Below are positions 3,220 to 26,151 of a stretch of DNA of 47,506 bases, one piece after another (position 1 is the stretch's first letter; each line of letters opens with the position of its first letter). The DNA is from an uncultured Patescibacteria group bacterium (GTDB taxonomy: Bacteria > Patescibacteriota > Patescibacteriia > UBA2591 > CALHIP01): contig CALHIP010000004.1 of assembly GCA_938030745.1 (NCBI GenBank), positions 1-47,506 on the forward strand, given 5' to 3'. The notes below the pieces were generated by a model. The model was not told the DNA's origin. It ran no database searches and saw only the letters and a list, made by a program, of their open reading frames with translations. The position numbers were made by a program, and so were the translations under genes.

Positions 3220-4428
3220 ATGGAAGAGATTAAAGAAAAAAAGAATAAACAAAAAATTGTTATCTTTATCATTATTGCTTTTTTAATTGGTTTTATTTTT
3301 GGAAGGATTTATTCTCCAATTGAAGAAAAGGAAACATCTTTCGTTAACCTAATTAAAAAAATTGAAAGGAAAGAAGAAACTATTGATTACAATTTATTTT
3401 TAGATGTTTTAGAAACTATTAGAACAAAATATATTGAACAACAAATCTCAGAGAGGAATCTTTTCTATGGAGCCTTAAAAGGTTTGGTTGCTGGATTAAA
3501 AGATCCTTACTCTATTTTTTTAGAACCTGAATTAGCTGAGAAATTTAAAACAGAGCTTTCAGGATTTTTTGAAGGAATTGGCGCAGAGATTAGTTCAAAA
3601 AAAGAAAGAATTATTATTGTTGCGCCATTAGAAGGAACACCAGCTGAGAAAGCAGGTTTAAAACCAGGTGATGAGATCTATGAAATTAATGGAGAAGATA
3701 CATTAGGAATGGGAATTGATGAAGCAGTTTCAAAAATTAGAGGCAAGAAAGGAACTCAGGTTAAACTTTTAATTTTTAGAAAAGGTTGGGATAGTCCAAA
3801 AGAATTTGTGATTACAAGAGATGTAATTAGGATAAAAACCGTCAGGTATGAAATGAAAAATAACAAAATTGCTTATCTTAAGATTTCTTATTTTAATGAA
3901 AGAACTGTAAGTGAATTTGATAAAGCAATCAGGGAAATTTTAAGTAAAAAACCATCCGGTTTAATCTTAGATTTAAGAAATAATCCAGGTGGTTATCTTT
4001 ATGCAGCTGTTGAAATTGCTGGTGCTTGGACTGGAGAAAAAGTGATTGTTTTTGAAAAATTAAGATCAGGAGAAGAAAAAGAGTATTGGGCAAAAAGAGA
4101 AGCGAAACTTAAAGATTTAAAAACTATTGTTTTAGTCAATAAAGGTTCTGCTTCCGGCTCTGAAATTTTAGCTGGTGCTTTACAAGACTATGAGATAGCA
4201 AAAATTTTAGGAGAAAAAACATTTGGTAAAGGAAGTGTTCAAGAGTTGACTGAGTTAAGAGATGGTTCAATTGTAAAATTAACTGTTGCCCGTTGGTTGA
4301 CACCAAAAAAAAGAGAAATTGAAGGAATAGGTATTGAGCCAGATATTAAAATAGAGATGACAGAAAAAGATTATGATGAAGAAAAAGATCCACAACTTGA
4401 GAAAGCAATCGAGTTATTAACAAAATAA
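3220..4428 (+). CDS. ctpA: Carboxy-terminal processing protease (peptidase S41) with N-terminal membrane anchor and PDZ domain
   Basis: 402 aa. N-terminal TM helix, PDZ segment (GTPAEKAGLKPGDEI), S41 catalytic region GSASGSEILAGAL ... TFGKGSVQ. Confidence 0.88.
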   Translation: MEEIKEKKNKQKIVIFIIIAFLIGFIFGRIYSPIEEKETSFVNLIKKIERKEETIDYNLFLDVLETIRTKYIEQQISERNLFYGALKGLVAGLKDPYSIFLEPELAEKFKTELSGFFEGIGAEISSKKERIIIVAPLEGTPAEKAGLKPGDEIYEINGEDTLGMGIDEAVSKIRGKKGTQVKLLIFRKGWDSPKEFVITRDVIRIKTVRYEMKNNKIAYLKISYFNERTVSEFDKAIREILSKKPSGLILDLRNNPGGYLYAAVEIAGAWTGEKVIVFEKLRSGEEKEYWAKREAKLKDLKTIVLVNKGSASGSEILAGALQDYEIAKILGEKTFGKGSVQELTELRDGSIVKLTVARWLTPKKREIEGIGIEPDIKIEMTEKDYDEEKDPQLEKAIELLTK

Positions 4429-4892: not shown

Positions 4893-6239
4893 TTAATAGA
4901 AAAGTTCACCTTCCATTCCCCAAGGAGTAACTTTTTTTATTTTTACTTTAACAAATTTGCCGATTAGATCAGAATCTTGAGATTGAAAATTAGAAACTTT
5001 TACTTGTTTAAATGTCTTTGTTCGACCGAAAAGAGAATTGTCTTTTTTGCTTTCAATTAATACTTCAACAATTTTATTAAGATATTTCTTATTTTTTTCT
5101 AATGCTGTTTTTTCTAAAATTTTAGCTAAAATTTTCCATCGCCTTTCCTTTTCTTCTTGCGATACATCATCTTTTAATTTAGCTGCTGAAGTAGCGGGGC
5201 GCGGTGAATATTTAGCAATATAAGCCATATCGAACTTTACTTCTTTCATCAATTTAGTTGTATTGAGAAATTGTTTTTTTGTTTCGCCAGGAAAACCAAC
5301 AATAATATCAGTTGAAATGTTGATATTTTTTTCAATCCCTTTACGGATGGCAAAGAATTTCAAACGAATTTTTTTAATTAAATTTTTATAATGAGTTATA
5401 GTATAGTTGCGATTCATCCGACGTAAAATTTCATCATCACCAGCTTGAACTGGTAAATGTAAATATGACATCACTTTTTCACACCTGGCCATAGTTTCAA
5501 TTAATTTATCAGATAAATCTTTAGGATGATTACTAATAAAAGTCAGCCAGAAATTTCCATCTAAATCATTAATCATTTTTACCAATTTTGGAAATCTTAT
5601 AATTTTTTCCTTTTGAGTTTTAAGTTTTCCTTGATAACTATTAACATTTTGTCCTAATAGAATAATCATTTTATAACCTCTTTTTATCAATTCCTTTACT
5701 TCACAAATAATTTCTTCTGCTGGTCTTGATATTTCTCTTCCTCTTGTATAAGGAACGACACAATAAGAGCAAAAATTATTACAGCCTGTCATAATTGGGA
5801 CATAGGCAATGGGAAAGGTTGAGAATTTAGGAAAAATATTTAAATAATTTTTAAATTTAAAATTTTTGAACTGTTTGTTTTTCAATTTTGTTTCAATTTT
5901 TGATAAAATTTGCGGCCAACTCATAAGTTGATCAATATCAAGAATGAGATCAGTCTTGTTTTTTAAATTCTCTTTATCTTTAGGTAAAATACAACCTGTT
6001 AAGACTATTTTTTGATTTTTTATTTTTTTTAAATTTTTATTTTTTATATTTGAGATTTGACCATAAACGCGATCTACTGCTGATTGTCGAACTGAACAAA
6101 CATTGATGACAATTAAGTCAGCCTTATCTTTATCAAGAGTGGGGGAGTAACCAATTTTTTCTAAAACAGCAGCAATTCGTTCCGAATCAGAACGATTCAT
6201 TTGACATCCATATGTAATAATATGGTATTTCATAGACAT
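4893..6239 (-). CDS. miaB: tRNA (i6A37) methylthiotransferase, radical SAM
   Basis: 448 aa. Has the UPF0004 N-domain cysteines (YGCQMN, NVCSVR, TGC), the radical-SAM CNNFCSYC motif and a C-terminal TRAM domain. The start may instead be the second ATG at 6233 (MKYH...). The annotated start codon overlaps repeat copy A. Confidence 0.88.
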   Translation of the reverse strand: MSMKYHIITYGCQMNRSDSERIAAVLEKIGYSPTLDKDKADLIVINVCSVRQSAVDRVYGQISNIKNKNLKKIKNQKIVLTGCILPKDKENLKNKTDLILDIDQLMSWPQILSKIETKLKNKQFKNFKFKNYLNIFPKFSTFPIAYVPIMTGCNNFCSYCVVPYTRGREISRPAEEIICEVKELIKRGYKMIILLGQNVNSYQGKLKTQKEKIIRFPKLVKMINDLDGNFWLTFISNHPKDLSDKLIETMARCEKVMSYLHLPVQAGDDEILRRMNRNYTITHYKNLIKKIRLKFFAIRKGIEKNINISTDIIVGFPGETKKQFLNTTKLMKEVKFDMAYIAKYSPRPATSAAKLKDDVSQEEKERRWKILAKILEKTALEKNKKYLNKIVEVLIESKKDNSLFGRTKTFKQVKVSNFQSQDSDLIGKFVKVKIKKVTPWGMEGELFY

Positions 6240-6272
6240 AGTCTATTTTCTGCGGCCGTCCGAAAAGAGAGG
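6238..6272 (+). repeat. R element copy A (ATAGTCTATTTTCTGCGGCCGTCCGAAAAGAG + AGG)
   Basis: The 32-nt core at 6238-6269 is identical to 6865-6896 and differs by 1 nt from 24878-24909. Internal inverted repeat CTATTTTC / GAAAAGAG surrounds TGCGGCCGTCC. It lies between the regulator stop (6277) and the miaB start. Confidence 0.9.
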
Positions 6273-6276
6273 TATA

Positions 6277-6822
6277 TTAAAATTTGCCTAATTCTTTTAC
6301 TTTTAAAAATTTAATATATTTGGAAAGATTTAAATTTTTAACTACTTCTTTTAATTCTTTATAAACATCATAGGGAGAAACCCAAACACTTTGTTGAACT
6401 TTTTGAAATCCTAATTCATAAAGAAACTCACGAAAGACATTTCTATCTTTTCTTCTTTTTTCCGGAATATCAAAAATAACCATCAACCAAGATTTATCAG
6501 GATTATATTTCTTTTTAAAATTTTTGATTTTATTTTTCAATACTCTTTTTTCACCTTTTGAAGTCAAAAAATACCCTTTCCCTTCTTTAGTGATTTTTAT
6601 CTTTAAGTATCCGTTTCTTTTCAATCGATAAATAGCGGAATAAAGATTTTTCTTTCCCCGCTTTTGAAAATATTCTTCTAACCAAGTTCTGAATGGCCTA
6701 TAGCGAGGGTCACCTCGAAGCCAATATCTAAAGGTAGATAAAGTACACGGCTGACGAAAGACATCTATAAAATCAGCTATTAACAAAAGTATTTTCTCTG
6801 TAAAAGATTGTTTTTTCTTCAT
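6277..6822 (-). CDS. Short PaaX-like transcriptional regulator (winged helix + PaaX-middle/Cas2-like ferredoxin-fold domain)
   Basis: 181 aa. The central segment LYSAIYRLKRNGYLKI...GKGYFLTSKGE looks like a winged-helix wing. WLMVIFDIPEKRRKDRNVFREFLYELGFQKVQQSVWVSP matches the PaaX (W-x-l-v-x-f-x-iPe..R...r..L...Gf....vWvsP) and Cas2-like beta-alpha-beta pattern. Assignment is by motif only. Confidence 0.6.
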   Translation of the reverse strand: MKKKQSFTEKILLLIADFIDVFRQPCTLSTFRYWLRGDPRYRPFRTWLEEYFQKRGKKNLYSAIYRLKRNGYLKIKITKEGKGYFLTSKGEKRVLKNKIKNFKKKYNPDKSWLMVIFDIPEKRRKDRNVFREFLYELGFQKVQQSVWVSPYDVYKELKEVVKNLNLSKYIKFLKVKELGKF

Positions 6823-6829
6823 TTAATGA

Positions 6830-6857
6830 ATTATATCACTTTTTAAAAATAAGTAAA
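6830..6857 (-). promoter_or_regulatory. Predicted sigma70-type promoter of the PaaX-like gene (leaderless-type geometry)
   Basis: On the minus strand: TTTACT (6857-6852), 16-nt spacer, TGaTATAAT (-10 at 6835-6830). Only 7 nt separate the -10 from the ATG at 6822. Confidence 0.45.
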
Positions 6858-6864
6858 TTTTTAT

Positions 6865-6900
6865 ATAGTCTATTTTCTGCGGCCGTCCGAAAAGAGGAGG
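6865..6900 (+). repeat. R element copy B (ATAGTCTATTTTCTGCGGCCGTCCGAAAAGAG + GAGG)
   Basis: The 32-nt core at 6865-6896 is identical to copy A. It sits between the thrS terminator hairpin and the -35 box of the regulator promoter. Confidence 0.9.
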
Positions 6901-6930
6901 ACAAGGATTTTATTTGATGAAGGTTTGCAA

Positions 6931-6960
6931 CAAAAAAGAAGTCTTTTTAGATGACTTCTT
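6931..6960 (-). terminator. Rho-independent terminator downstream of thrS
   Basis: On the minus strand the stem AAGAAGTC (6960-6953) pairs with GACTTCTT (6943-6936) around a 9-nt loop, followed by TTTTTTG. It begins 27 nt after the thrS stop. Confidence 0.6.
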
Positions 6961-6986
6961 GATTTAAATTCTATCAGCTAAATTTT

Positions 6987-8786
6987 TTACTTTTTATTTT
7001 TTATCTCTTTTAGAACTTTCTCAATAAATTGTTTTTTACTCATTCTCTTGAGTTTCTTTTTTCCGTGCTGGCGAACATTTAAAGTTTTACTTTTCATTTC
7101 TTTATCACCAATAACTAAAATATAAGGAATTTTCTGATTCTCTGCTTTGCGGATTTTATAAGGGATTGTCTCTCGGGCTAAATCAACCCAAACTCTTAGG
7201 CCAAAATTTTCTAATTCCTTACCTAATTTTTGAGTATATTGCCAATGGGCTTTACCAACTGGTGCTAAATAAATCTGAACAGGCGAGAGCCAAACCGGAA
7301 AGATACCTTTACAATGTTCAATTAAACAACCAAGAAATCTCTCCATTGAACCCAAAACTGTTCGATGAATCATAACCGGTCTAGCCTTTTTCCCATTTTT
7401 ATCAATATAATTAATATCAAACCTTTCTGGAAAGTTAAAATCAACTTGAATAGTAGGTCCTTGCCATGCTCGCCCTAAAACATCAATAACTTTAATATCA
7501 ATTTTTGGACCATAAAAAGCACCTTGGCCAGGGTCTATCTCGTATTTAACTTTTGTTTTCTCTAAAGCATTTTTCAAAGCCTGAGTTGCTTTTTCCCATA
7601 TTTGGTCAGAGCCAATTGATTTTTTCGGCTTGGTTGAAAGAACAACTTGGTAATTCTTAAAACCAAAGGTTTTCATCATAAAAATTGAGAGTTTTAAAAC
7701 ATCAATAATTTCTTTTTCTAATTGTTCATAAGTACAGAAAATATGGGCATCATCTTGAGTAAAACCGCGGGCTCTGACAAGACCATGTAAAACTCCAGAT
7801 CTTTCATAGCGATAAACAGTTCCTAATTCAGCATAGCGAAGCGGTAAATCACGATAACTTCTGATCTGGCTTTGATAAATTAAAATATGAAAAGGACAAT
7901 TCATTGGTTTAATTAAATATTCGTCTTCATCAATCTTGATCGGTGAATACAGATTTTCACGATAGAATTCCCAATGGCCAGATTTTTTCCATAGATTAAG
8001 TTTGCCAATATGGGGCGAATAAACTAATTGATAACCTCTTTTTTCATGCTCTTTTTTCCAAAAATCTTCAATTATTTTTCGAATAATCGCTCCTTTTGGA
8101 TGCCACAAAACTAGACCAGCGCCTAACTCTTCTGAGATACTGAAAAAATCTAAATTTTTACCAATTTCTCGATGATCTCTTTTTTCTATTTCTTTGAGAT
8201 TTATTAAATATTGATCTAACTCTTTTTGAGTAAAAAATGCTGTACCATAAATTCTTTGAAGCATTGGATTTTTTTCATTACCGCGCCAATAAGCGCCAGC
8301 AATCTTTAAAAGTTTAAATGCCTTGATCTCTTTAGTTGATTTTAAATGTGGTCCACGACAAAGATCGATAAATTTACCCAACTGGTAAATTGTTACTGTT
8401 TTCGGGATCTGTTTAGATTGGGAAATTAAAGACCACGAATTTATTTCTGTTGTTCCATATTTTTTTAAATCTTCTAAAAGTTCAACTTTGTATGGCTGAT
8501 TAAGTTTTTTAAATAGCCCTATTGCTTCTTCCAATGATATTTCTTTTTTTTCAAATTTTAACCCTTTTTCTATTAATTCCTTCATTTTCTCTTCAATTTT
8601 TGGCAAATCATTTTCTGTTAGTTTGCTACTACTTCCAGTTAAATCAAAATCATAATAAAAACCATTTTCAATAACCGGACCAATTCCAAACTTAACATTT
8701 CCAAACAATTCTAAAACAGCTAAAGCCATTAGATGACTTGTTGAATGGCGAAGAATTTCAATTCGTTTTTGAGATTTATTTTCCAT
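6987..8786 (-). CDS. thrS: Threonine--tRNA ligase (no N-terminal TGS domain)
   Basis: 599 aa. Starts directly in the N2/editing domain (RHSTSHLMALAV...GPVIENGFYYDFDL). Class II core motifs (FRYE..., HRTVLGSMERFLG) and a C-terminal anticodon-binding domain are present. Confidence 0.95.
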   Translation of the reverse strand: MENKSQKRIEILRHSTSHLMALAVLELFGNVKFGIGPVIENGFYYDFDLTGSSSKLTENDLPKIEEKMKELIEKGLKFEKKEISLEEAIGLFKKLNQPYKVELLEDLKKYGTTEINSWSLISQSKQIPKTVTIYQLGKFIDLCRGPHLKSTKEIKAFKLLKIAGAYWRGNEKNPMLQRIYGTAFFTQKELDQYLINLKEIEKRDHREIGKNLDFFSISEELGAGLVLWHPKGAIIRKIIEDFWKKEHEKRGYQLVYSPHIGKLNLWKKSGHWEFYRENLYSPIKIDEDEYLIKPMNCPFHILIYQSQIRSYRDLPLRYAELGTVYRYERSGVLHGLVRARGFTQDDAHIFCTYEQLEKEIIDVLKLSIFMMKTFGFKNYQVVLSTKPKKSIGSDQIWEKATQALKNALEKTKVKYEIDPGQGAFYGPKIDIKVIDVLGRAWQGPTIQVDFNFPERFDINYIDKNGKKARPVMIHRTVLGSMERFLGCLIEHCKGIFPVWLSPVQIYLAPVGKAHWQYTQKLGKELENFGLRVWVDLARETIPYKIRKAENQKIPYILVIGDKEMKSKTLNVRQHGKKKLKRMSKKQFIEKVLKEIKNKK

Positions 8787-9903: not shown

Positions 9904-12900
9904 TTATCTTAATTCTTCTGCTTTTAAAACAATAATTTTCGGCTCTCCCTCCTTTTCTGAAATTTTACCTTCAATTAGAACAATTTTATTTTCTTGCCAA
10001 AGAAAGGGAAATTCTTTCAAAACCCTTGGAAAAACTAATGCTTCTACACTGCCAAAATAATCTTCAATCTTAACAAAAAGCATTGGTTCTTGAGTATTAG
10101 TAATTATTTTTTTAATCTTTGTAATAATTCCAGCAACTCTTACTAATTGACCTTCTTTCATTTCACTTAATTTTTGACAAGAGATAACCTTTTTCTCTTC
10201 TAAAATTTTATTTAAATTTTGAAGTGGATGACCGGATAGAAAAAGACCTAAAAATTCTTTTTCTAAATAAAATATTTCCTCAAGAGAAAAACTTTTAGCA
10301 TTCTTTAAGTTAAGATTGTGAGATTGTTTAAAATTAGAAAAAAGAGTTTTTTGGGGAGATTCTTTTTCTTTTTGAACTCTTCTAGCAAATTCTAAAAGCT
10401 CATTTAAATTTTCTAGAAGAGTACTTCTCTGATTAAATCTATCTAATGCACCAGCCTTAATTAAACTTTCTAACGATTTCTTATTAATATATTGAATAGG
10501 AACCCGACTTAAAAAATCTTCTAAACTTTGATAAGCACCATTTTCATTTCTTTCTAAAATAATTGCTTTAGCGACATTTTCACCAACATTTTTTATAGCT
10601 AATAAACCGAATCTAATAAACTTTTTTCCATCCTTTTTAACAATTGCAAAATTTTCTTCACTTTCATTGATATCTGGTGGAAGAACTTCTATACCTAGTC
10701 GTTTTGCCTCTTCAATTTCAATAGCAACTCGATCTAGATCATTGGCATCAGAAATTAAAAGAGCAGTCAAAAATTCTACTGGAAAATGTGTTTTTAAATA
10801 AGCAGTTTGATAAGCAATTGTTGCATAACAAGTAGCATGAGCTCGATTGAAAGCATAGCCAGCAAATGGTTCAATAAAATTATAAATTTGTTCAGCAATT
10901 TTTTTATCAATTTTATTTTTTATACACCCTTCAATAAATTTCTCTTTTTGTTCTTTTAAAAGTCCAGGAATTTTTTTACCTATCGCTTTCCTTAAAACAT
11001 CTGCTTCTGCCAAAGAAAAGCCAGCTAATTCTTTAGCAATCTCTAAAATTTGTTCTTGGTAGACAGCAATACCATAAGTTTTTTCTAAAATTGGTTTAAG
11101 TTTTGGATGAAGATAAGAAATTTTTTTAGTATATTTTCCAGCAATATATTTAGGAATAAACTCCATTGGTCCTGGTCGATAAAGAGAAATTATCGCAATA
11201 ATATCCTCGAAAGTAGATGGTTTAAGTTCTTTTAAATATTTCTGCATTCCTTTACTTTCTAATTGAAAGACACCAACTGTCTCTCCATTTTTAAAGAGTT
11301 CAAAAGTTTTCTTATCATCAAGAGGAATTTTATCCAATTCTATTTTTTTACCCTCTCTCTCTAAAAATTTTAGAGTTAATTCTAAAATAGTTAAATTTTT
11401 TAATCCTAAAAGATCAATTTTTAAAAGTCCTAAATCTTCAATCGAATACATTGAATATTGAGAAATAAGAACCCTTTTCTTTTGTTGGACATCAAACTGG
11501 GTTGGTAAAAAATTATTAAGTGGTTCAGGAGTAATAACAACTCCACAAGCATGAGTTGAAGCATGTCTGGCGACTCCTTCTAATTTTTTAGCAATTTCAA
11601 TTATTTTTCTTGCCTCTGGATTTTCTAAATATGTATCTCTTAATTCTTTCACATTTGTTAATGCTTCCTCTAAAGAAAGAGACTGTGGAACCATTTTTGC
11701 TAATCGATCACAAAAATTATAAGGAAGTCCTAAGACTCGACCAACATCTCTGATAGCTACCCGAGCAGCCATAGTTCCAAAAGTAATAATCTGAGCAACA
11801 TTTTCTTGACCATATTTTGCTTTTAAATAATCAATAACTTCATCACGACGGATATCAGTGAAATCTAAATCAATATCTGGAGCAGAAATTCTTTCCGGAT
11901 TAATAAATCTTTCAAAAATTAACTCATATTTTAATGGATCAACAGAAGTAATTCCTAACAGATAAGAAACGATTGAAGCTGCTGCCGAACCTCGGCCAGG
12001 ACCAATCATAATTTTATTTTCTCTAGCCCAATTAACAAAATCGGCAACAATTAAAAAATAAGTGGCAAAGCCAGTTTTTTTGATAACTTCTAATTCATAA
12101 TTTAATCTTTCTATAACTTCTTTTGATGCTTTAGGATATTTCTCTTTTATTTTTTCAAAACATAGTTTCTTTAAATATTCATTAGGATCCTCACCAGCAG
12201 GAAGAGGGAAAGGAGGAAATTTTATTTTGCCAAGTTCTATTTCTAAATTACATTTCTCAGCGATCTCTTCGGTAGTGAAAACAACCTCATCATTATCTTT
12301 AAAAAAATTTAACATTTCTTGCTCTGAACGGAAATAAAAATCATTAGAAGGCATCTTAAGTCTATCTTTATCAGTAATTTTCTTTTTTGTCTGAAGGCAC
12401 AAAAGAATATCTTGAATTTCTGCATCTTCTCTATTAAGATAATGGATATCAGATGTCGCTACTACCTTAAGATTATATTTTTTTCCGATTTCAATTAACT
12501 TTTTATTAACTTTAATTTGTTCAGGGAAATTATGAGCCTGAACTTCTAAATAAAAATCATCTTTAAAAATTTCTTGATATGTAGAAATAATTTTCTCTAA
12601 ATCTTTTGTTCTTTCTTCTAAAATTGCCCTTGGAATTTCTCCTTGTAAACAGCCAGACAAAGCAATTAATCCATCATGGTAAATTCTTAAAAGTTCAAGA
12701 TCAATTCTTGGTTTATAATAAAAGCCCTCAAGATGGGCTAAACTTGTTAACCGAATTAAATTTTTATAACCAATTTCATTTTTTGCTAAAAGAGTCAGAT
12801 GAAATGGTTTATCATCAATTTTTATTCTTTTTAAAAATCTTGACTCAGGAGTAAGATAAGCCTCAAAACCAATAATTGGTTTTATTCCAGCCTCTTTTGC

Positions 12901-13056
12901 TTTTTTGTAAAACTCAATTGCTCCATACATTACTCCATGATCAGTTAAAGCAAGTGCTTTCATTTTTTCATTTTTTGCTTTTTCAATTAGATCATCAATT
13001 TTTGGTAAACCATCAAGTAAAGAATAATGAGAATGAACATGAAGATGAACAAACAT
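9904..13056 (-). CDS. dnaE: DNA polymerase III alpha subunit
   Basis: 1050 aa. PHP domain FVHLHVHSHYSLLDG, a polymerase core (GPGRGSAAAS, DIDLDF) and a C-terminal OB fold. Confidence 0.95.
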   Translation of the reverse strand: MFVHLHVHSHYSLLDGLPKIDDLIEKAKNEKMKALALTDHGVMYGAIEFYKKAKEAGIKPIIGFEAYLTPESRFLKRIKIDDKPFHLTLLAKNEIGYKNLIRLTSLAHLEGFYYKPRIDLELLRIYHDGLIALSGCLQGEIPRAILEERTKDLEKIISTYQEIFKDDFYLEVQAHNFPEQIKVNKKLIEIGKKYNLKVVATSDIHYLNREDAEIQDILLCLQTKKKITDKDRLKMPSNDFYFRSEQEMLNFFKDNDEVVFTTEEIAEKCNLEIELGKIKFPPFPLPAGEDPNEYLKKLCFEKIKEKYPKASKEVIERLNYELEVIKKTGFATYFLIVADFVNWARENKIMIGPGRGSAAASIVSYLLGITSVDPLKYELIFERFINPERISAPDIDLDFTDIRRDEVIDYLKAKYGQENVAQIITFGTMAARVAIRDVGRVLGLPYNFCDRLAKMVPQSLSLEEALTNVKELRDTYLENPEARKIIEIAKKLEGVARHASTHACGVVITPEPLNNFLPTQFDVQQKKRVLISQYSMYSIEDLGLLKIDLLGLKNLTILELTLKFLEREGKKIELDKIPLDDKKTFELFKNGETVGVFQLESKGMQKYLKELKPSTFEDIIAIISLYRPGPMEFIPKYIAGKYTKKISYLHPKLKPILEKTYGIAVYQEQILEIAKELAGFSLAEADVLRKAIGKKIPGLLKEQKEKFIEGCIKNKIDKKIAEQIYNFIEPFAGYAFNRAHATCYATIAYQTAYLKTHFPVEFLTALLISDANDLDRVAIEIEEAKRLGIEVLPPDINESEENFAIVKKDGKKFIRFGLLAIKNVGENVAKAIILERNENGAYQSLEDFLSRVPIQYINKKSLESLIKAGALDRFNQRSTLLENLNELLEFARRVQKEKESPQKTLFSNFKQSHNLNLKNAKSFSLEEIFYLEKEFLGLFLSGHPLQNLNKILEEKKVISCQKLSEMKEGQLVRVAGIITKIKKIITNTQEPMLFVKIEDYFGSVEALVFPRVLKEFPFLWQENKIVLIEGKISEKEGEPKIIVLKAEELR

Positions 13057-13088
13057 ATTAAAAAACTTAAAATGAAAATTTAAAGCTT

Positions 13089-13379
13089 CTATTTTTTCTC
13101 TTCTTTTTCTTTATTTTTTTTCCTCTCTTTTAAAAAATCAATTACTGTTCTAATTCCTTCAGCGATAAGAGGGAGGAGGGTTATTTCTTTGATTTTCCTT
13201 TCAGTAGTTTTAACAATCTCATTAAGTCTTCCACTAACTTCTTCAATAAATCTTCCGGCATTATACAATTTCTTTATTAACCTTATTAAATAATAGAGGA
13301 AAAAACAGGTAAAAAAAGAAATCGTTAAAATTGATAAACCCAGAATAAGAAATAAAATGTCCTTACTTGTTTGAATCAT
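13089..13379 (-). CDS. Small membrane-anchored protein (DUF948-like, tentative)
   Basis: 96 aa. One N-terminal TM helix, then a helical segment and a K/E-rich tail. First gene of the minus-strand dnaE-thrS string. Confidence 0.5.
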   Translation of the reverse strand: MIQTSKDILFLILGLSILTISFFTCFFLYYLIRLIKKLYNAGRFIEEVSGRLNEIVKTTERKIKEITLLPLIAEGIRTVIDFLKERKKNKEKEEKK

Positions 13380-13445
13380 AGATTTGTCTTTTAATAAATT
13401 TAAGGTATAATTATTATAATTGATTTTGATAAATTAATCAAATTT

Positions 13446-14309
13446 ATGGATAAAAATAATGTTGATTTTACTGAAAAAGAATTAAAGATTGTCTATTTTT
13501 TTGTGACAAAAAAGAAATTTTTGAAGAAAATTCTTATCGGCTTTTTAATCCTGATAAATATTTTTATCTATACTTATTTGATTTATCATTCTATCCAATA
13601 TTTGACTCAAAGTAAAGAATATCAAATGATGGAAAAAGAACTTACTTCTCAAAATGTTAATTTTAGCATAATTCGTCAAGCTATTTCACCAATTCCTGTT
13701 AGCGTTGTTTTCTCAAAAGCAATTCCTTTGAGTGGTTTTAAATATCATTTAGTTTGTTTAGTTGAAAATCTAAATAAAGATTGGTTTATTAAATCTTTAG
13801 ATTATAAATTTATTTTATCTGGTTTTGAAACAAAATCTTTTAAAAGTTTCCTTTTGCCAGAGGAAAAGAAAATCCTTACTGATTTCAATGAGACAATCAC
13901 TCAAAGGCCAGATAGTATTTTTTGCCAAATTTCAAATATAAAATGGCAAAGAGTTAAACCTGATAAAAGACATCTCTTAGAGATTCCAAAAAATTTTATC
14001 ATCAAAGATTTAAAATATCAACAAGCAACTAAAATTGATGAGAGTAATATTCTTACTTTTAAATTTATAAATTCAACGATTTATAATTTCTGGGAAATTG
14101 ATCTTTTAATTAACTTTTATTCAAAAAAAGAGATTGTTTGGGTTGAAAAGATAAAAATTAAAGAAATAATGAGTAAAGAAGAGAGAGGAATAAAAATTAT
14201 TTTACCTAATTTTTTGCCTTTTATTTCAGAAATTGAGGTCCAGCCAGAGATTAATGTTTTTGATCAATCTTCTTTTATTCCTTTAAGAATAAAGCCAAAA
14301 GAAAGATAA
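13446..14309 (+). CDS. Hypothetical membrane-anchored protein
   Basis: 287 aa. Single TM near residues 28-48, followed by a non-repetitive extracytoplasmic domain. No motif recognised. Immediately precedes the SEDS gene. Confidence 0.55.
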   Translation: MDKNNVDFTEKELKIVYFFVTKKKFLKKILIGFLILINIFIYTYLIYHSIQYLTQSKEYQMMEKELTSQNVNFSIIRQAISPIPVSVVFSKAIPLSGFKYHLVCLVENLNKDWFIKSLDYKFILSGFETKSFKSFLLPEEKKILTDFNETITQRPDSIFCQISNIKWQRVKPDKRHLLEIPKNFIIKDLKYQQATKIDESNILTFKFINSTIYNFWEIDLLINFYSKKEIVWVEKIKIKEIMSKEERGIKIILPNFLPFISEIEVQPEINVFDQSSFIPLRIKPKER

Positions 14310-14311
14310 TT

Positions 14312-15424
14312 ATGTTATTTTCTGCGATAATAAGGAAAATTAAATTTTTTGATTGGACATTTTTTATTTTGATTCTTCTTTTACTAATTTTAGGGTTAAC
14401 TATTCAATATAGTCTTTCTTTAGGATTAGAGTCAGACAATTTTTTTATTTTTAAAAAACATTTAGCTTTTATTATTTTAGGATTGATTGTTTTTTTTCTT
14501 TTAAGTTTTTTTGATTTCCGGATTTTAAAACAATTAGCTCCTCTTCTTTATTTATTTATTGTTTTACTTCTTATTTTTGTACTTATTCTTGGTAAACCAA
14601 TTCGAGGAGTAAAAGGTTGGTATTTTCTCGGTTTGGCTTATTTTCAACCGGTCGAATTAGCAAAAATTGTTTTTATTATTATTATGGCTAAGATAATAAC
14701 AGAAAAAATTAGAGAAAATAATGAATTAAAAAAAATTATTTTGAGCGGAATTCTTCTTTCTCCTTTATTTTTTTTAACTCTGCTTCAGCCTGACTTTGGT
14801 TCAGCTATAATTTTTATTTTGATTTGGCTTTTTCTTATTTCATTAAATATTCAAAAAATAAAAAATTTTTTCTTTATTATCATTTTTTTAATTTTAATCT
14901 TCCTTTTCTTTTGGCAATTTATTTTAAAAGATTATCAAAAAGCAAGGATTATCACTTTTTTCTCTCCTTACAAAGATCCTCTTGGCAGAGGTTATCAAAT
15001 TCTTCAGGCAAAAATTGCTATCGGTTCTGGCAAACTTTTTGGTCGAGGTATTGGTTATGGTTCACAAGGACAGATGAAGTTTTTACCAGCTAGTCGGACT
15101 GATTTTATTTTTGCTGCTTTAGCTGAAGAATTAGGATTCTTTGGCTCACTTCTTCTTATTTTTTTATTTACCCTCCTTTTTTTAAAAATAATTAGAATCT
15201 CAAAAGTTGTTTATGACAATTTTAGCCTTTTTGTTGTTTTAGGAATTGGTTTTAATTTATTTCTCCATGTTATAATTAATCTCAGCATGAATTTAGGCCT
15301 TCTTCCAATTGTCGGCATTCCTTTACCTTTAATCAGTTACGGAGGAAGTTGTCTTATTGCTACCTTAATTTCTTTAGGAATAATTGAGAGTATAATTATC
15401 CATCAAGAGATTCCTTCTTATTGA
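14312..15424 (+). CDS. SEDS-family peptidoglycan polymerase (FtsW/RodA)
   Basis: 370 aa polytopic membrane protein with SEDS hallmarks (QPVELAKI, LQPDFGSA, TDFIFAALAEELGF, PLPLISYGGS). Confidence 0.9.
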   Translation: MLFSAIIRKIKFFDWTFFILILLLLILGLTIQYSLSLGLESDNFFIFKKHLAFIILGLIVFFLLSFFDFRILKQLAPLLYLFIVLLLIFVLILGKPIRGVKGWYFLGLAYFQPVELAKIVFIIIMAKIITEKIRENNELKKIILSGILLSPLFFLTLLQPDFGSAIIFILIWLFLISLNIQKIKNFFFIIIFLILIFLFFWQFILKDYQKARIITFFSPYKDPLGRGYQILQAKIAIGSGKLFGRGIGYGSQGQMKFLPASRTDFIFAALAEELGFFGSLLLIFLFTLLFLKIIRISKVVYDNFSLFVVLGIGFNLFLHVIINLSMNLGLLPIVGIPLPLISYGGSCLIATLISLGIIESIIIHQEIPSY

Positions 15425-15449
15425 AAAAATAATTATTTTAAGATATAAT
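15421..15449 (+). promoter_or_regulatory. Predicted sigma70-type promoter for CDS 15462
   Basis: TTGAAA (15421-15426, overlapping the upstream stop), 17-nt spacer, TATAAT (15444-15449). The ATG lies 12 nt after the -10, so the 5' UTR would be only about 6 nt. Confidence 0.5.
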
Positions 15450-15461
15450 ATTTTAAATTTT

Positions 15462-16475
15462 ATGTCTGAAAATTTAACAAAAACTAATTTTCATTTAATT
15501 ATTAAAACTATTATCATTATTCTCTTTTTGATTTTTCTTTACTTCATCCGCGATATTCTTTTACTCTTAGTTGTTGCTTTTATTATCGCTTCTATCTTTT
15601 CTCCTATTGTTGATTGGTTTGAAAGGAAAAAAGTTTCTCGCTTTGTTGCCACCTTATTAGTTTATTCACTTCTTCTTTTAATTTTTATTATCATTTTAAT
15701 TCTTGTGATTCCAAACCTGGCAAAAGAAATAGAATTTATTGGTGAAAGGATTTCTAATTATTATTCTTTTCTAAAATCAATTTTTGGCGAGAGTCAAAAA
15801 TTTTTACCAAAAGATTTTTCTGAATTTATTAGAGATTGGCAGAAAGAAATTCCAGCTATTAGCCGAGGGATTTTTTCTCTTTTAGGTGGTGTGGCAAGTA
15901 CATTTTTCTCCTGCTTTCTTATTGCTATTATTTCTTTCTATATTATTGTCGAAAAAAATTCTTTGGAAAAATTCTTTACTTATTTTGTTCCAGAAAAATA
16001 CCATCAATTTGTTTCTCGATTAATTTCTCTCTCTCAAAAAGATTTAAGTAATTGGGGGTGGGGAATGTTGATTTTAATGTTCTTAATTGCTGGTCTAACC
16101 TATATTGGACTTTTAATTCTTCATGTTAAATATCCTTTATTTTTAGCAGTTATTGCTGGTTTTACTGAAGTCATTCCAAGAATTGGTCCTTTTATTGGTG
16201 CTATTCCAGCGGTAATTTTAGCATTCTTCCAGTCGCCAGTTAAAGCCCTTTTAGTAGCCGTTCTCTATTTGATTATTCAACAAATTGAAAATTCAATAGT
16301 TGTGCCCCAGTTAATGAAAAAAGTAGTTGGTCTTAATCCAATTGTAACTATTATTGTTCTTTTAATAGGAGCAAAAATCGGTGGAATTTTCGGTGCAATT
16401 ATTGCTGTTCCTGTGACCGCGGTGATTAATATTGTTATAAGAGAATACCTTGCTTTAAAAAAACAAATCCAATAA
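15462..16475 (+). CDS. AI-2E family transporter (PerM-like permease)
   Basis: 337 aa with about 8 TM segments. The C-terminal region GFTEVIPRIGPFIGAIPAV...IQQIENSIVVPQLM is typical of the AI-2E/UPF0118 family. Confidence 0.82.
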   Translation: MSENLTKTNFHLIIKTIIIILFLIFLYFIRDILLLLVVAFIIASIFSPIVDWFERKKVSRFVATLLVYSLLLLIFIIILILVIPNLAKEIEFIGERISNYYSFLKSIFGESQKFLPKDFSEFIRDWQKEIPAISRGIFSLLGGVASTFFSCFLIAIISFYIIVEKNSLEKFFTYFVPEKYHQFVSRLISLSQKDLSNWGWGMLILMFLIAGLTYIGLLILHVKYPLFLAVIAGFTEVIPRIGPFIGAIPAVILAFFQSPVKALLVAVLYLIIQQIENSIVVPQLMKKVVGLNPIVTIIVLLIGAKIGGIFGAIIAVPVTAVINIVIREYLALKKQIQ

Positions 16476-16884: not shown

Positions 16885-19800
16885 GAAAATTTTCAATTTG
16901 TTTCTATTAGGCATGTTGTTTTTTTCAGGATTCTTTTTTGTTTTGGCGAGACCGGTAAAAGCACAGTGGGTGAATCACGTGGTGATTAGTGAAGTGCAGA
17001 TTAGCGGAAATACGGCCGATGACGAATTTATTGAACTTTATAACCCAACCGATAATCCAATAGATTTAACCGGTTATTTTTTAAAAAAGAAATTTAAAAA
17101 TACAAAAGGAGAAATAATTGAAGAAACTTTTGTCATCAACACTTACTTTGTCAATAAAATTATTCAACCTAGAAAGTTTTTACTTTTAGCCCGCAAAGAT
17201 TATTACCAAGGTTTGGTAGTGCCTGATATCACTTGGCCTAAAAGTTATTATCTTTCAAACAACAATACAATCATCCTTTATGACGCGTCGGCTAATATTA
17301 TAGATAAACTTGGATGGGGGCCTGAGGCGCCCGATAGCGAAACCCAACCCTTTCCCCAGAATCCTGGTAAGAACCAAAGCATTGAACGTAAAGCCTCACA
17401 ATATTCAACGGCTATTACTTTAGGATCGGGCGGTCAAGAAGAAAAAAGCGGTAATGGTTGGGATACCAATAATAATGCCATGGATTTTGTTTTACAAACC
17501 ACTCCTAATCCTCAAAATAGCTTTTCGCCAACAGAAAATGAGTTGCCACTATCTAAACCGGTTCAACAAGAACAACAGCTGGAACAGCAAGATCAACAAC
17601 AAGAAGAGTACAAAACGCAAAATTTTCCATCAGATGTAGTCATTAATGAATTTGTTTCCGATCCGGTTGATGGTGAAGAAGAATGGATTGAGCTTTATAA
17701 TAATACTGATCAAGAAATTGATTTGACCAATTGGAAAATTGAAGAAGGTTCTGGAGCTCAGACAAATCTTTCTGGGAAAATTGGGCCGAAAGATTTTTTT
17801 GTTGTTGAAAAGATTAAAGGTTATTTAAATAATACCGGTGATATTATTAAGTTAATTGATTCAAATGGTCGAATTATTGATCAGGTTAGCTATGGTAATT
17901 GGGATGATTTTAATAAAGATGATAATGCGCCAACAACATCTGATCCAAATTCAATAGCCAGAATTATTGATGGTTATGATACCGACCAAGATAATTTAGA
18001 TTTTAAAATCTCAACCATCCCAAGTAAAGGCAAACCAAATAAATTTTTAAAAGAATATCCATTAGGAATAATTATTAATGAAATTTTGCCCAATCCAAAA
18101 GGTGATGATTCTGAAAATGAGTTTATTGAATTAAAAAATATCACTGATTATGAAATTGATTTAGATGGCTGGAAATTAGAGGATAAAGGTGGAACAAAAT
18201 TTGTTATTTCATCAAAAAATTTTCCTACAACTAAAATTCTAGCTAAAGGATTTTTTGTAATCAAACGAAAAGATTCTAAAATTGCTTTAAATAATTCTGG
18301 CCTAGAAACAATAAAACTTTATCAGCCAAATGATAATTTAGTTGATGAAGTTTCTTATTCTGGTGATATTGCTGAGGATCTCTCTTATGCTAGAGATGAA
18401 AAAAATGATTGGTTTTGGACAATTCAACCAACACCAGGTCAAGAAAATATTATCAAAAAAGCTAACCAAAAACCAAAAGCAGTTATTTCTAGTTTGAATA
18501 AGGCCTTGGTTAACGAAGAAATAATTTTTGATGCTTCTGATTCATACGATCCGGATGGTGATAGTTTGACCTACTTCTGGGATCTCGGTGATGGAACAAA
18601 AAGTGAAAATATTTTAGTCAAACATATTTATAAAAAAGCTGGTAAATACAATGTCAAACTTGAAGTTAAAGATAGTTTTGGCGAGACTGACTCAACTAGT
18701 TTAAAAATCGAAATTTTAAAAGATGAAAAAGGTGAAAAAATAATTTATTTTAATCCAACTGAATTAAAAATTTTAATTACTGAATTTTTACCAAATCCGG
18801 AAGGAAGTGATGAATCAGAGTGGATTGAAATCTTTAATGCTAATGATAAAGAAATAGATTTATCAGGTTGGTTCTTAGATGATGCAGAAGGCGGAAGTAA
18901 GCCTTATAAGATCAAAGAAGGAACAAAAATTCTACCTGGTGAATATTTGGTTTTTGAAAGAAAAGAAACAAAAATTGCTTTAAATAATAATTTTGATTCG
19001 GTTCGTCTTCTTGATCCGGAAGGAAATTTATTTTATGAAATTTCTTATGAAAAATCAAAAGAAGGATTTTCTTATGCTTTAGATGAAAATGGTGAGTGGC
19101 ATTGGACTTCGATTTTAACTCCTGGCAATAAAAATATATTTAGTGAAGAAACAAAATCAAAAACAAAAATTGCAACAGAAAAAGGAAAAATTTTAGAAAT
19201 TCCATTATCGGAAGTCAGAAATCAAGACATTGGTGATTTAATAAAAGTAAAAGGTGTTGTCTCAGTTGAGCCTGGCGTTTTAGGTTCTCAGATTTTTTAT
19301 TTGTCAGGTTCAGGCATTCAGATTTATTCATCAAAGAAAGAATTTCCAAATTTAAAAATTGGTGATAAAGTTGAAATCGTTGGTGAATTAGCTGAATATA
19401 AAGGTGAAACAAGAATAAAAGTTTCTTTAAAAGATGATATAAAAATTTTAGAAAATGGAATTCCACCAGAGCCAAAAAAAGTAAAAACTGGTGAAATTGA
19501 TGAAGACTTAGAAGGAAGTTTAGTTGTTGTTATTGGCCAGATGATTGAGTCAAAAACAAATTATTTTTATTTAGATGATAGCAGTGGTGAGATTAAAGTA
19601 TATCTTAAATCTACAACTGGCATTAAAAAACCAAAAATGAAAGAAGGTGATTGGTTAAAAGTTATTGGTATTGTTAGTCAATATTCTCAGGAATATCGAA
19701 TTTTACCACGTTATCAAAGTGATATAGAATTGATAAGGAAAATAACTGATTCAATTAAGTTTCAAACAGCTAGTAACTTATCTCAAACAAAATCCCTTTT

Positions 19801-24764: not shown

Positions 24765-24806
24765 TTACTATATAATTTTTAGCGGCCGTGAAAAATTATT
24801 TAGTAA
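24765..24806. repeat. P element copy 1: 42-bp AT-armed palindrome centred on CGGCCG
   Basis: TTACTATATAATTTTT-AGCGGCCGTG-AAAAATTATTTAGTAA. The 16-nt arms are complementary with one mismatch and share 15 nt with P element copy 2. Confidence 0.85.
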
Positions 24807-24877: not shown

Positions 24878-24912
24878 ATAGTCTATTTTCTGCGGCCATC
24901 CGAAAAGAGGAG
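24878..24912 (+). repeat. R element copy C (ATAGTCTATTTTCTGCGGCCATCCGAAAAGAG + GAG)
   Basis: 31 of 32 core positions match copies A and B (CGGCCG becomes CGGCCA). Its 3' purine block AGAGGAG ends 6 nt before the ATG at 24919. Confidence 0.9.
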
Positions 24913-25290: not shown

Positions 25291-25355
25291 TTTTTTTGAA
25301 ATGAGAAGTTATTAGATTGATAATTTTTTATTCTTTCAAATCCATAATAATTTGT

Positions 25356-26102
25356 ATGAAAAAAAACATTGGTATCTTAGGTTACGGTGAAGTTGGTAAA
25401 ACACGTGCTTTATTTTATCATAGAAAAAAATATAATCTTCTTATTAAAGATATCAAAAAAGATGATTTTAAAAATGAAAAATTGGATATTTTAAATGTTT
25501 GTTTACCATATATCAAAAATTTTGAAAAAATTGTTATTGAAGTAATAAAGAAAAATAAACCAAATTTAACAATTATTCACTCTACAGTTTTACCTGGAAC
25601 AACGAAAAAAATTATTAAAATAACTAAAGGGAAAATTGTTCATTCGCCGATTCGTGGGGATCACCCCCACCTTTATCAAGCTATAAAAACTTTTATTAAA
25701 TATATAGGTTGTGAAGATTTAAAAGCTGGAAAGTTAGCAGAAAGACATTTCAAAGAAATTGGGATTAAAAAAATAAAAATTATAAAACCAGCTATAGTGA
25801 CAGAATTAAACAAATTGATTGATACAACTTATTATGCTCATTGCATTGTTTTTACTGATTATGTGGCTGAAATTTTTAAAAAATATAAAGTACCATTTAA
25901 GACATTTTGGGATTTCAATCTTTCTTATAATGATGGTTATGAAAAAATGGGTAAGAAAAATGTTATTCGACCAACCCTTTTACCAACAAGTATGTTTGGT
26001 CAAGCAGGAAAAATTACTGGCCATTGTCTTATTCCTAATGCCGAACTTTTAGAGAAAATTTTTCCTCATCCAATCACTAAATATATTTTAAAATACAGAT
26101 AA
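25356..26102 (+). CDS. Short NAD(P)-binding oxidoreductase, UDP-glucose/GDP-mannose dehydrogenase-like (lacks the C-terminal domain)
   Basis: The track ORF starts at TTG 25317. The ATG at 25356 gives MKKNIGILGYGEVGK (Rossmann GxGxxG). HSTVLPGTT and TELNKLIDTTYYAHCIVFTDYVAEI resemble the UDPGDH N-terminal and central-helix regions. Family call is tentative. Confidence 0.5.
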   Translation: MKKNIGILGYGEVGKTRALFYHRKKYNLLIKDIKKDDFKNEKLDILNVCLPYIKNFEKIVIEVIKKNKPNLTIIHSTVLPGTTKKIIKITKGKIVHSPIRGDHPHLYQAIKTFIKYIGCEDLKAGKLAERHFKEIGIKKIKIIKPAIVTELNKLIDTTYYAHCIVFTDYVAEIFKKYKVPFKTFWDFNLSYNDGYEKMGKKNVIRPTLLPTSMFGQAGKITGHCLIPNAELLEKIFPHPITKYILKYR

Positions 26103-26105
26103 AAA

Positions 26106-26151
26106 ATCTACTATATAATTTTTTACGGCCGTTAAAAATTATATAGTAGAT
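26106..26151. repeat. P element copy 2: 46-bp AT-armed palindrome centred on CGGCCG
   Basis: ATCTACTATATAATTTTT-TACGGCCGTT-AAAAATTATATAGTAGAT, with perfect 18-nt arms. Begins 4 nt after the stop at 26100-26102. Confidence 0.9.

Follow-up and report, generated by a model that had tools for sequence, protein, structure and literature searches.

Patescibacteria have tiny genomes with very few recognisable transcription factors, and to our knowledge almost nothing is known of how their genes are regulated. For several repressors, namely lambda CI (OL/OR), LacI (O1/O3) and GalR (OE/OI), auxiliary operators enclose or flank the repressor gene and loop the DNA. REPINs/RAYTs combine a single-copy gene flanked by cognate palindromes with paralog-specific classes, extra extragenic copies and compensated changes, and in IS200/IS605 elements, units of approximately 0.65–0.75 kb, one gene of approximately 180 aa is enclosed by two similar ends that can form hairpins. 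Within Cas1–Cas2 complexes, Cas2 dimers touch the DNA duplex at its middle. PaaX of E. coli and Pseudomonas joins a winged helix to a Cas2-like dimerisation domain, and the E. coli protein binds a 39-bp dyad (TGATTC-N27-GAATCA) and by steric hindrance represses its own promoter (PMC9493321). Each of these systems resembles in part the locus described here, which lies in a 47,506-nt stretch (the window; contig CALHIP010000004.1, assembly GCA_938030745.1) of an uncultured Patescibacteria group bacterium. The repeats at this locus are one case of a pattern found across ultra-small Patescibacteria, for which cognate operators are the best supported of the candidate readings and the ends of a mobile module are the main rival.

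The 32-mer ATAGTCTATTTTCTGCGGCCGTCCGAAAAGAG occurs on the + strand at 6238–6269 (copy A) and 6865–6896 (copy B) with no mismatch between the two, and at 24878–24909 (copy C) with a single mismatch (CGGCCG to CGGCCA), which confirms the repeat as it was reported by a sequence-only reading of the window. The expectation from 100 dinucleotide-preserving shuffles is 0 matches, and the hexamer CGGCCG occurs five times in the window against 0.3 expected. Copies A and B enclose the gene of a 181-aa protein (6277–6822, − strand), with copy A 7 nt past its stop codon and copy B 7 nt upstream of the −35 box of its promoter-like site TTTACT-16-(TG)TATAAT (6830–6857, − strand), so that both positions given earlier stand. 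With 7 nt between the end of the −10 box and the ATG, the mRNA of this gene is probably leaderless; relative to such a start the centre of copy B lies at approximately −60, which is more usual for activators or looping than for simple occlusion.

The neighbouring genes place the copies more precisely. Copy A had been said to overlap the annotated start of miaB, and it does cover the first in-frame ATG (6239–6237), but homology puts the real start at 6233–6231, 4 nt beyond copy A (relatives begin MKY[YFH]I). On the other side, thrS has its own canonical intrinsic terminator at 6930–6960 (− strand; a AAGAAGTC/GACTTCTT stem followed by a T-run), so copy B is not needed for that purpose. In the nearest relatives the equivalent thrS terminator stands directly before miaB. 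Copy C precedes the ATG of a 123-aa membrane protein (24919–25290, + strand; no Pfam family) by 9 nt, the earlier figure of 6 nt being right only if the extra GAG common to copy B is counted, and its right end runs into and overlaps the Shine-Dalgarno sequence GAGGAG of that gene. The exact 32-mer core has no match in GTDB genomes or JGI metagenomes, and the exact protein encoded between copies A and B was found on no other contig searched.

The statement that intergenic DNA in the window has no other long conservation proved wrong. P1, a 40-nt near-palindrome of the 32-mer family with a TTTTTAGCGGCCGTGAAAAA core (24766–24805), carries TATAAT in its left arm (24771–24776), and P2, a 46-nt near-perfect palindrome of 22 pairs with the centre CGGCCG (26106–26151), starts 4 nt after the stop codon of a 261-aa protein with weak nucleotide-sugar-dehydrogenase similarity (25317–26102, + strand). 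Both share the CGGCCG centre with the 32-mers and together they bracket the membrane-protein gene and the 261-aa gene that follows it. A protein 73% identical to the regulator (L003), its closest relative on a long contig, has the P2 type of palindrome on its flanks, and a family-type dyad is also found upstream of the orthologous membrane-protein gene in another locus (L374). P1 and P2 are probably binding sites for the regulator as well, and the membrane-protein gene is a candidate remote target. A search of 2.5 Mb of loci gave no homologs of the two enclosed genes in the vicinity of other PaaX_M genes.

The protein between copies A and B matches the PaaX_M central domain (PF20803) with E = 4.1e-22 and 78.5 bits against a cut-off of 24. 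Its AF2 model (pLDDT 86) has PaaX 8a39 as best fold match in Foldseek (E = 9.6e-4), followed by Cas2 dimers, and contains an N-terminal winged helix made of helices 39–55 and 60–69 and a beta hairpin at 73–86. The profile matches the winged helix-turn-helix (wHTH) proteins F93, MarR and AspA, as well as PaaX residues 55–169. In the C-terminal domain Cas2 models pass their cut-offs (TIGR01573, 31.9 bits against 24.5; PF09827, 25.4 against 23.8), and this domain superposes on Cas2 at 2.4–3.2 Å with 27–31% identity. However, the PaaX_C effector domain (PF08223) has no match in the 181-aa protein, and the PaaX equivalog model TIGR02277 gives 37.1 bits, far under its cut-off of 264.55. The label "PaaX-like" is thus right at the level of the PaaX_M domain, but the protein is not a PaaX orthologue.

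Further differences separate the patescibacterial protein from classical PaaX. It has no link to phenylacetate genes and keeps the Cas2 FDIPE and Q-x-S-V-W motifs that PaaX has lost, including the beta-1 Asp of Cas2 within an invariant F117-D118-I119. Whereas the long PaaX operator of approximately 39 bp lies at the own promoter, the sites of the patescibacterial family are near-perfect palindromes through the centre and stand on both gene flanks, and the family has expanded, with several paralogs in one tiny genome. Dyads of 36–46 bp adjoin the promoters of family members, and the 32-mer of the window is an incomplete dyad. Unlike Cas2, the regulator is fused to a winged helix and its repeats enclose the gene itself rather than spacers; no CRISPR array is present in the window, and no cas genes, including cas1, are found among the called neighbours in loci L003–L009.

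Enclosure of the gene by two sites is a property of the family. Among homologous PaaX_M genes in Patescibacteria, 46 of 85 have an exact repeat of at least 14 nt common to the upstream and downstream flanks, compared with 5 of 490 control ORFs (the other ORFs from the same loci), and 40 of 84 family genes have a palindrome on both sides. The flanking repeats are long dyads with lineage-specific arms, in some examples entirely different ones, and a 6-bp centre. This centre is the most conserved part, and in 80% of the elements the dyad symmetry runs through it (that is, it is self-complementary), the pattern expected if a dimer with two-fold symmetry binds the duplex. The downstream palindrome lies at a median of approximately 6 nt from the stop codon. 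Differences between the flanking copies comprise 49 compensated changes against approximately 3 expected, so that each copy stays a perfect palindrome; in addition to protein readout, this compensation points to hairpin or cruciform formation or to template-switch mutation. We found at least 538 PaaX_M-family loci in GTDB representatives, with up to six or more paralogs in a genome; several divergent paralogs (30–45% identical) each have their own palindrome. Conserved synteny with the same downstream gene is seen for three loci (L001, L002 and L004). In the literature searched, neither a wHTH–Cas2-like family nor the flanking-palindrome architecture is described.

A link between protein and site is found at a single residue. 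Residue 144 is Q or H in 23 of 23 proteins with a GC-middle site (CGGCCG, AAGCTT or CAGCTG) and K or R in 14 of 14 proteins with an AT or mixed middle (CGATCG, CAATTG or CGRYCG), and the rule holds in protein pairs that are 72–81% identical but belong to different centre classes. The regulator of the window has Q144, matching its GC-middle CGGCCG centre. When centre class was compared between nearest neighbours on the protein tree, the outcome was only weakly positive (13 of 42 against 7.7 expected), and the single-column analysis was far more informative. The covariation of residue 144 and centre is independent of phylogeny, and since it holds at approximately 80% identity, the site that flanks the gene is most likely read by the protein itself.

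Family elements also occur away from PaaX_M genes. In the protein-fetched loci 58 elements are gene-adjacent compared with approximately 9 orphans, and unbiased DNA contains 16 long palindromes per 1.15 Mb (approximately 14 per Mb). One orphan site upstream of ruvX is at a syntenic position in two species, with two compensated changes between them, and three orphan sites are located between convergent genes, a setting in which a promoter is not expected. The genes that adjoin orphan sites have no common theme. In orientation, 12 orphans are tandem, 3 are convergent and 2 are divergent, which mirrors the background (786, 131 and 86) and does not discriminate. In a generic pattern scan with TTTTNCACGGCCGTGNNAAA, the matches listed mix real sites with chance ones from unrelated phyla and serve as examples, not counts.

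On balance, we think it probable that the repeats are cognate operators of the enclosed wHTH protein, giving autoregulation and control of a few remote targets. Among the explanations offered by the sequence-only reading this one has the best support, which comes from the family-wide flanking sites, the residue–site covariation and the PaaX precedent, together with the extra cognate-type sites elsewhere in the same genomes and the low-copy concentration of the elements at PaaX_M-family genes. The three 32-mers would then be duplex-DNA sites for a 181-aa homodimer-type binder that amounts to the two-domain PaaX core without its effector domain. The Cas2-like dimer would sit on the dyad axis, with residue 144 (Q where the middle is GC) reading the central base pairs, and the two winged helices would contact the T-tract and TATA-like arms on either side, covering a site of approximately 36–46 bp. 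Binding at copy B, next to the own promoter, and at copy A, at the gene end before miaB, would give autoregulation and could control the transcription that leaves the regulator gene, whereas binding at copy C would fall on the ribosome-binding region and make the membrane-protein gene a remote target. The unit of two sites and the gene between them is self-contained and has moved as a block into the thrS–miaB junction. The repeats, the family-wide architecture, the residue–site covariation and the insertion are shown here, while binding itself, repression rather than activation, and any cooperation between the flanking sites or looping of the DNA between them are inferred. In the looping repressors, too, a pair of cognate sites is separated by several hundred bp and the regulator gene lies between the sites or beside them, which makes cooperative occupancy plausible, but the two-site bracket is here conserved across a whole protein family and tied to the stop codon.

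Several observations fit a plain operator less easily. The tight tie of the second site to the stop codon and the compensated differences that keep each copy a palindrome are not predicted by it, and the 32 of 32 nt identity of copies A and B exceeds the needs of typical operators. Orphan sites between convergent genes, and neighbours of orphans that share no theme, likewise count against it. Finally, the FDIPE Asp is kept although classical PaaX has lost it, and the protein may have an enzymatic role.

Genes that carry the annotation "Cas2" or "PaaX-like" form a family that is widespread in Patescibacteria, and its members come with their own long palindromic site on both sides of the gene, the centre of which is predicted by one amino acid. 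This offers a directly testable protein–DNA recognition code by which regulons in uncultured organisms could be predicted from sequence alone, and the family may supply compact orthogonal DNA-binding modules. It also corrects a systematic mis-annotation, as the genes are no part of CRISPR systems. The two-sided bracket and the compensated palindromes lie outside the standard operator model and may indicate cruciform-linked or mobile biology.

In the main rival reading, site, gene and site form an autonomous mobile or selfish module of low copy number whose ends are the palindromes. The protein would then recognise the ends and, with its Cas2-type Asp or by way of a host recombinase, cut or recombine them as duplex, hairpin or cruciform; orphan palindromes would mark empty sites or remnants, and regulation would be secondary. 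The thrS–miaB junction is conserved in 95 of 147 loci from other Patescibacteria and a PaaX_M gene is found there in 0 of 160; the best MiaB match is only 60% identical and the argument for insertion rests on deeper synteny. Judged by this synteny, the repeat–gene–repeat block is a lineage-specific insertion into a conserved junction. The 73% identical regulator of L003 stands in a different context, after ComEC. Divergent paralogs with a palindrome of their own in each genome, the position of IS200 and RAYT genes between two cognate palindromes, the intrastrand pairing implied by compensated arm changes, the downstream palindrome abutting the stop codon and the invariant FDIPE Asp that classical PaaX lacks all speak for a module of this kind.

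Nevertheless, we consider such a module unlikely. Identical multi-copy modules within a genome are not found, the paralogs being 30–45% identical, and synteny is kept for L001, L002 and L004 and for the ruvX orphan site. Pfam, NCBIfam and PADLOC give PaaX_M and Cas2 matches alone in the regulator, with no transposase or recombinase domain, and the only characterised member of the family is a repressor. Hence, the proposal that the repeats are boundaries of an inserted cassette holds in so far as the block is an insertion, but the repeats are low-copy cognate sites and not target duplications, and no recombinase is encoded. Compared with REPINs/RAYTs, the flanking arrangement is present and dispersal is low-copy (the approximately 14 long palindromes per Mb), but the regulator is not an HUH/Y1 transposase, and its palindromes keep their symmetry through the centre instead of forming stem-loops with a free loop. 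Compared with IS200/IS605, TnpA and TnpB are absent, as are multiple identical copies and a conserved cleavage tetranucleotide, and the ends in the window cannot form a stable hairpin. The more specific claim, that the unit is an unrecognised selfish or mobile module whose winged-helix–Cas2 fusion, its Cas2 active-site Asp intact, recognises and perhaps processes the flanking palindromes, we regard as doubtful. If true, the fusion would represent a free-living Cas2 relative acting on palindromic repeats outside CRISPR, with a bearing on the origin of the association between Cas2 and such repeats. It would also add a class of site-specific DNA-handling proteins that is new and whose specificity follows a simple, readable code, residue 144 against dyad centre.

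Other kinds of repeat were considered and rejected. A length of 32 nt exceeds that of a target-site duplication, and the repeat is part of a site seen across the family. The attC sites of integrons are imperfect and carry extrahelical bases, and there is no integrase close by; DNA uptake sequences would require a far higher copy number; and a mini-CRISPR is rejected given that arrays are absent.

It is much less probable, indeed very improbable, that the elements are nucleic-acid structures independent of the encoded protein, either DNA cruciforms with a general structural role or RNA hairpins acting as terminators, insulators, mRNA stabilisers or a 5′ leader that controls translation of the membrane protein. 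P1 and P2 do fold very stably (z = −3.7 and −8.6), many elements sit just past stop codons, copy C reaches into the Shine-Dalgarno sequence at its right end and arm changes are compensated. However, the three 32-mers, each of which had been said to fold as a hairpin, fold no better than shuffles on either strand (z = −0.69 on the + strand, −0.68 on the − strand and −0.43 for copy C), and with this the reading as a cis-acting RNA hairpin or small RNA fails; the 32-mer is conserved as sequence, not as structure. A terminator scan called none of the five elements in the window, and a T-run (U-tract in RNA) is absent after each, while canonical terminators already adjoin elements (thrS, and in L002 and L007). 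At the gathering threshold Rfam gives 0 matches in the window. Arm mismatches comprise 20 G·T, 13 A·C and 53 other, with no significant G·U excess, and a free loop would need neither the self-complementarity of the centre in 80% of elements nor its strong conservation. Structures of this kind would also leave the residue-144 covariation and the concentration around one gene family unexplained.

That chance similarity or an assembly artefact explains the repeats is a negligible prospect, for which nothing speaks except that the window is a metagenomic contig, whereas no matches are expected by chance and the artefact that the sequence-only reading had allowed for is very unlikely because the gene-between-two-sites layout recurs in dozens of independent assemblies from different projects.

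The 32-mer ATAGTCTATTTTCTGCGGCCGTCCGAAAAGAG pointed out in the sequence-only reading was confirmed: it occurs with 0 mismatches at 6238-6269 (copy A) and 6865-6896 (copy B) and with one mismatch at 24878-24909 (copy C), all on the + strand, with 0 copies expected from 100 dinucleotide-preserving shuffles. That inventory overlooked two related elements, the near-perfect palindromes P1 (24766-24805) and P2 (26106-26151), each with a T-tract/CGGCCG/A-tract core and with inward-facing TATAAT hexamers in its arms. A relaxed search of the window returned exactly these five elements and no further ones. The 32-mer has a complete left arm and centre, and its right arm breaks off into GAGGAGG. CGGCCG is found 5 times in the A+T-rich window against 0.3 expected; the fifth occurrence (17013) is unrelated to the elements and lies within diverged internal repeats of ~57-67 nt, spaced ~440-700 nt apart in a large coding region (17011-18988), which look like a repeated protein domain.

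Copies A and B flank the 181-aa regulator ORF (6277-6822, minus strand). Copy A ends 7 nt past the regulator stop codon; its proposed overlap with the miaB start holds for the first in-frame ATG, but the real start is at 6233-6231, 4 nt past the repeat, because relatives begin MKY[YFH]I. The -35 box of a good promoter match, TTTACT-16-TGnTATAAT (6857..6830), stands 7 nt downstream of copy B, and the -10 box of this match ends 7 nt ahead of the ATG, so that the regulator mRNA is probably leaderless. A + strand ORF of 16-17 codons at 6914-6967 (MKVCNKKEVFLDDFLI), which begins 18 nt after the GAGGAGG of copy B, coincides with the thrS terminator hairpin and is unlikely to be a gene. Between the end of copy C and the ATG at 24919 of the membrane-protein gene (24919-25290, + strand) there are 9 nt, and the gap of 6 nt noted earlier is obtained only when an extra shared GAG is counted. 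P1 and P2 enclose a two-gene unit encoding this 123-aa membrane protein and a 261-aa dehydrogenase-like protein (25317..26102, + strand), a bracket that parallels that of A and B around the regulator.

The regulator matches the Pfam family PaaX_M ('PaaX protein central Cas2-like domain') with an E-value of 4e-22 and clears the Cas2 cut-offs of both Pfam and NCBIfam; the PaaX_C domain is absent and the score is far under the PaaX equivalog cut-off. An AlphaFold2 model built from 20 homologs (pLDDT 86, confident) combines a winged helix, with helices up to residue 69 and the wing at 73-86, with a ferredoxin-like domain after it, and its top structural match is E. coli PaaX (8a39), followed by many Cas2 structures (27-31% identity, 2.4-3.2 Å). 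F117-D118-I119, R127, Q143 and S145 are invariant across the family, and the FDIPE motif is lost in classical PaaX and Rv0674. Together, the profile scores, model matches and motifs identify the regulator as a winged-helix-Cas2 fusion, related to PaaX but with a second domain closer to Cas2. Its relatives are publicly annotated as 'CRISPR-associated endonuclease Cas2', but the window contains no CRISPR array and the relatives' neighbourhoods examined contain no cas genes.

The bracket is a property of the family. Two GTDB relatives (60-62% identity) are each flanked by two palindrome copies with a CGGCCG centre and completely different arms, and homologs from an exact protein look-up are likewise bracketed. 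A Staskawiczbacteria homolog has a palindrome centred on AAGCTT, with a second paralog 4 kb off that carries yet another palindrome; in this locus (L007) the two PaaX_M paralogs (5627-6302 and 9913-10565) have their own unrelated palindromes, with TCGAACGA-like and AAGCTT centres, and an anaerobic ribonucleotide reductase operon (NrdD and its activase) lies between them. The closest long-contig relative (L003, 73% identical) has CTATATAATTTTTCACGGCCGT... of the window P type in its flanks, so the 32-mer and P1/P2 belong to one putative site family. By profile search the protein family has at least 538 loci, nearly all in Patescibacteria and with several paralogs per genome. Exact upstream/downstream flank repeats of at least 14 nt accompany 46/85 family genes versus 5/490 other ORFs of the same loci, and in 40/84 family genes both flanks carry a palindrome. 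Across the family the consensus reads TATA...CTTTTC...(6-bp palindromic centre)...GAAAAG...TATA, with a total length of 36-46 bp. The median distance from the stop codon to the downstream element is ~6 nt, and that from the upstream element to the ATG is ~45 nt; some loci have an upstream gap of only 7-10 nt, and in these the right arm of the element supplies the -10 box.

Several neighbourhoods have further features. In L004 the module is followed (11354-15631) by a Schlafen/AlbA_2 protein and a type II restriction-modification set (DNA methylase, R.HinP1I-like endonuclease and Vsr), a small defence island. Two distant lineages have ComEC, the DNA-uptake channel, as the immediate neighbour of the module, on the upstream side in one case and the downstream side in the other (L003 5539-7029; L007 10638-12074; L008/L009). 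Some MAGs with typical Patescibacteria loci (L035, L062, L210, L216 and others) are titled 'Gammaproteobacteria', 'Bdellovibrionales', 'Pacearchaeota' or 'Saccharibacteria' and are probably mislabelled bins.

Screening alignment columns across 42 protein/site pairs for discrimination of centre classes gave one low-entropy column, residue 144 (window numbering) of the Cas2-like domain, between invariant Q143 and S145. GC-middle centres (CGGCCG, AAGCTT, CAGCTG) go with Q, once H (23 cases including the window), and AT/mixed-middle centres (CGATCG, CAATTG, CGGTCG, CGACCG) with K or R (14 cases), with zero exceptions in the tree-order listing. The classes interleave in the tree, with cross-class pairs up to 81% identical (L020 (R)/L012 (Q); L022 (K)/L014 (Q), 80%; L005 (Q)/L015 (R), 72%); hence the residue has switched repeatedly, and the correlation is not accounted for by common descent. 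One apparent exception, L043, has flanks without a family-type palindrome; it carries K144 and two CGATCG palindromes 0.5-0.7 kb downstream (3728-3763 and 3897-3940). In L074 a CGGCCG-type orphan palindrome (2705-2740) lies 252 nt upstream of a regulator with CGATCG-type flanking sites, an arrangement that may reflect cross-regulation between paralogs. Residue 144 has the signature of a specificity-determining residue, which would place the Cas2-like dimer on the dyad axis. Consistent with this placement, the two central pairs are self-complementary in 60/75 even-length elements (80%), versus ~6% expected for a free hairpin loop.

As the most likely mechanism we favour, with some reserve, one in which the enclosed winged-helix-Cas2-like protein binds the repeats, as a dimer, as its cognate sites in duplex DNA. 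Its Cas2-like core would read the dyad centre and its winged helices would reach the arms. Copy B would mediate autoregulation, in a direction that we infer, copy A would control transcription leaving the regulator gene into miaB, and copy C, probably with P1 and P2, would control the remote membrane-protein gene; sites may also interact by looping. A precedent in the family is E. coli PaaX, which recognises the 39-bp dyad TGATTC-N27-GAATCA and acts as a repressor of its own promoter through steric hindrance (PMC9493321); this operator has the same span as the Patescibacteria elements. With the bracket and the residue-144 rule, this precedent makes operators the best of the readings first proposed, although they leave compensated changes and stop-codon coupling unexplained. 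PaaX-type autoregulators that act through a long dyad operator are a known kind of system; the family-wide two-sided bracket, the Patescibacteria expansion and the residue-to-base rule are new, with no description in the literature searched.

Remote sites also occur elsewhere. The AMAZON01 MAG has four sites with a common inner 26-nt core, only one of which adjoins a PaaX_M gene, and four other genomes have similar site sets. Genes beside orphan sites are diverse (RuvX, L21, M1 peptidase, glycosyltransferase, DHODH, SDR). Only three relatives are known of the membrane protein encoded behind copy C. Two lineages have its gene immediately after an ATP-cone/AF1548-like gene, without an intervening element; the third (L374) has a family-type dyad, TTTCACGATCGTGAAA, ~50 nt upstream of it, which hints independently at a regulatory link.

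The alternative that palindromes and gene form a mobile or enzymatic module is rather unlikely, although its cassette component is partly borne out. No close relative of the source organism was found in the collections searched. In Patescibacteria, thrS-miaB is a widely conserved same-strand gene pair: miaB directly follows thrS in 95/147 loci, a PaaX_M gene separates them in 0/160, and the nearest relatives have only a 50-nt spacer with a canonical terminator. By this comparison the 659-bp block 6238-6896, between the thrS terminator and the miaB start, is a lineage-specific insertion, and the moved unit is site-gene-site. The junction seems a recurrent insertion spot, with >400 nt of other DNA in 55/94 cases (loci L209-L368; window pair 4893-8786). 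Tight coupling of the downstream site to the stop codon, three orphan sites between convergent genes and retention of the Cas2 Asp also go beyond a textbook operator and lend the mobile or enzymatic alternative some weight. Active transposition, however, is disfavoured by paralogs only 30-45% identical within one genome, by the lack of any transposase or recombinase domain, by the same downstream gene in L001, L002 and L004, and by an orphan site kept at the syntenic position upstream of ruvX in two species (RuvX 95% identical). Unlike REP elements, the palindromes are low-copy: a 1.15-Mb sample of Patescibacteria DNA, retrieved independently of the elements, contained 16 long zero-loop palindromes (0 in shuffles) and two PaaX_M genes, and the protein-fetched loci held 58 palindromes adjacent to family genes and ~9 orphans.

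A protein-independent structure, including the RNA hairpin drawn initially, is highly improbable: strong folding is inherent in any palindrome and is seen for P1 and P2 (z = -3.7 and -8.6), but the 32-mers with short flanks form folds no more stable than those of shuffles (z = -0.69 and -0.68 for the + and - strands, -0.43 for copy C) and are thus conserved as sequence, as a protein site needs and a hairpin would not, while the window has no Rfam match, the terminator scan picks out none of the five elements, no T-run follows any of them, canonical terminators already stand at 6930-6960 (thrS) and, in L002 and L007, a short way upstream of the palindromes, and arm mismatches show no G.U excess.

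Between upstream and downstream copies of one gene we counted 49 compensated changes versus ~3 expected under independent change, with 61 other differences and 520 identical positions, and two compensated substitutions distinguish the syntenic ruvX sites of the two species. Such changes are not predicted by a homodimer reading fixed half-sites; they point either to functional DNA hairpins or cruciforms, or to a template-switch process that keeps long palindromes perfect.
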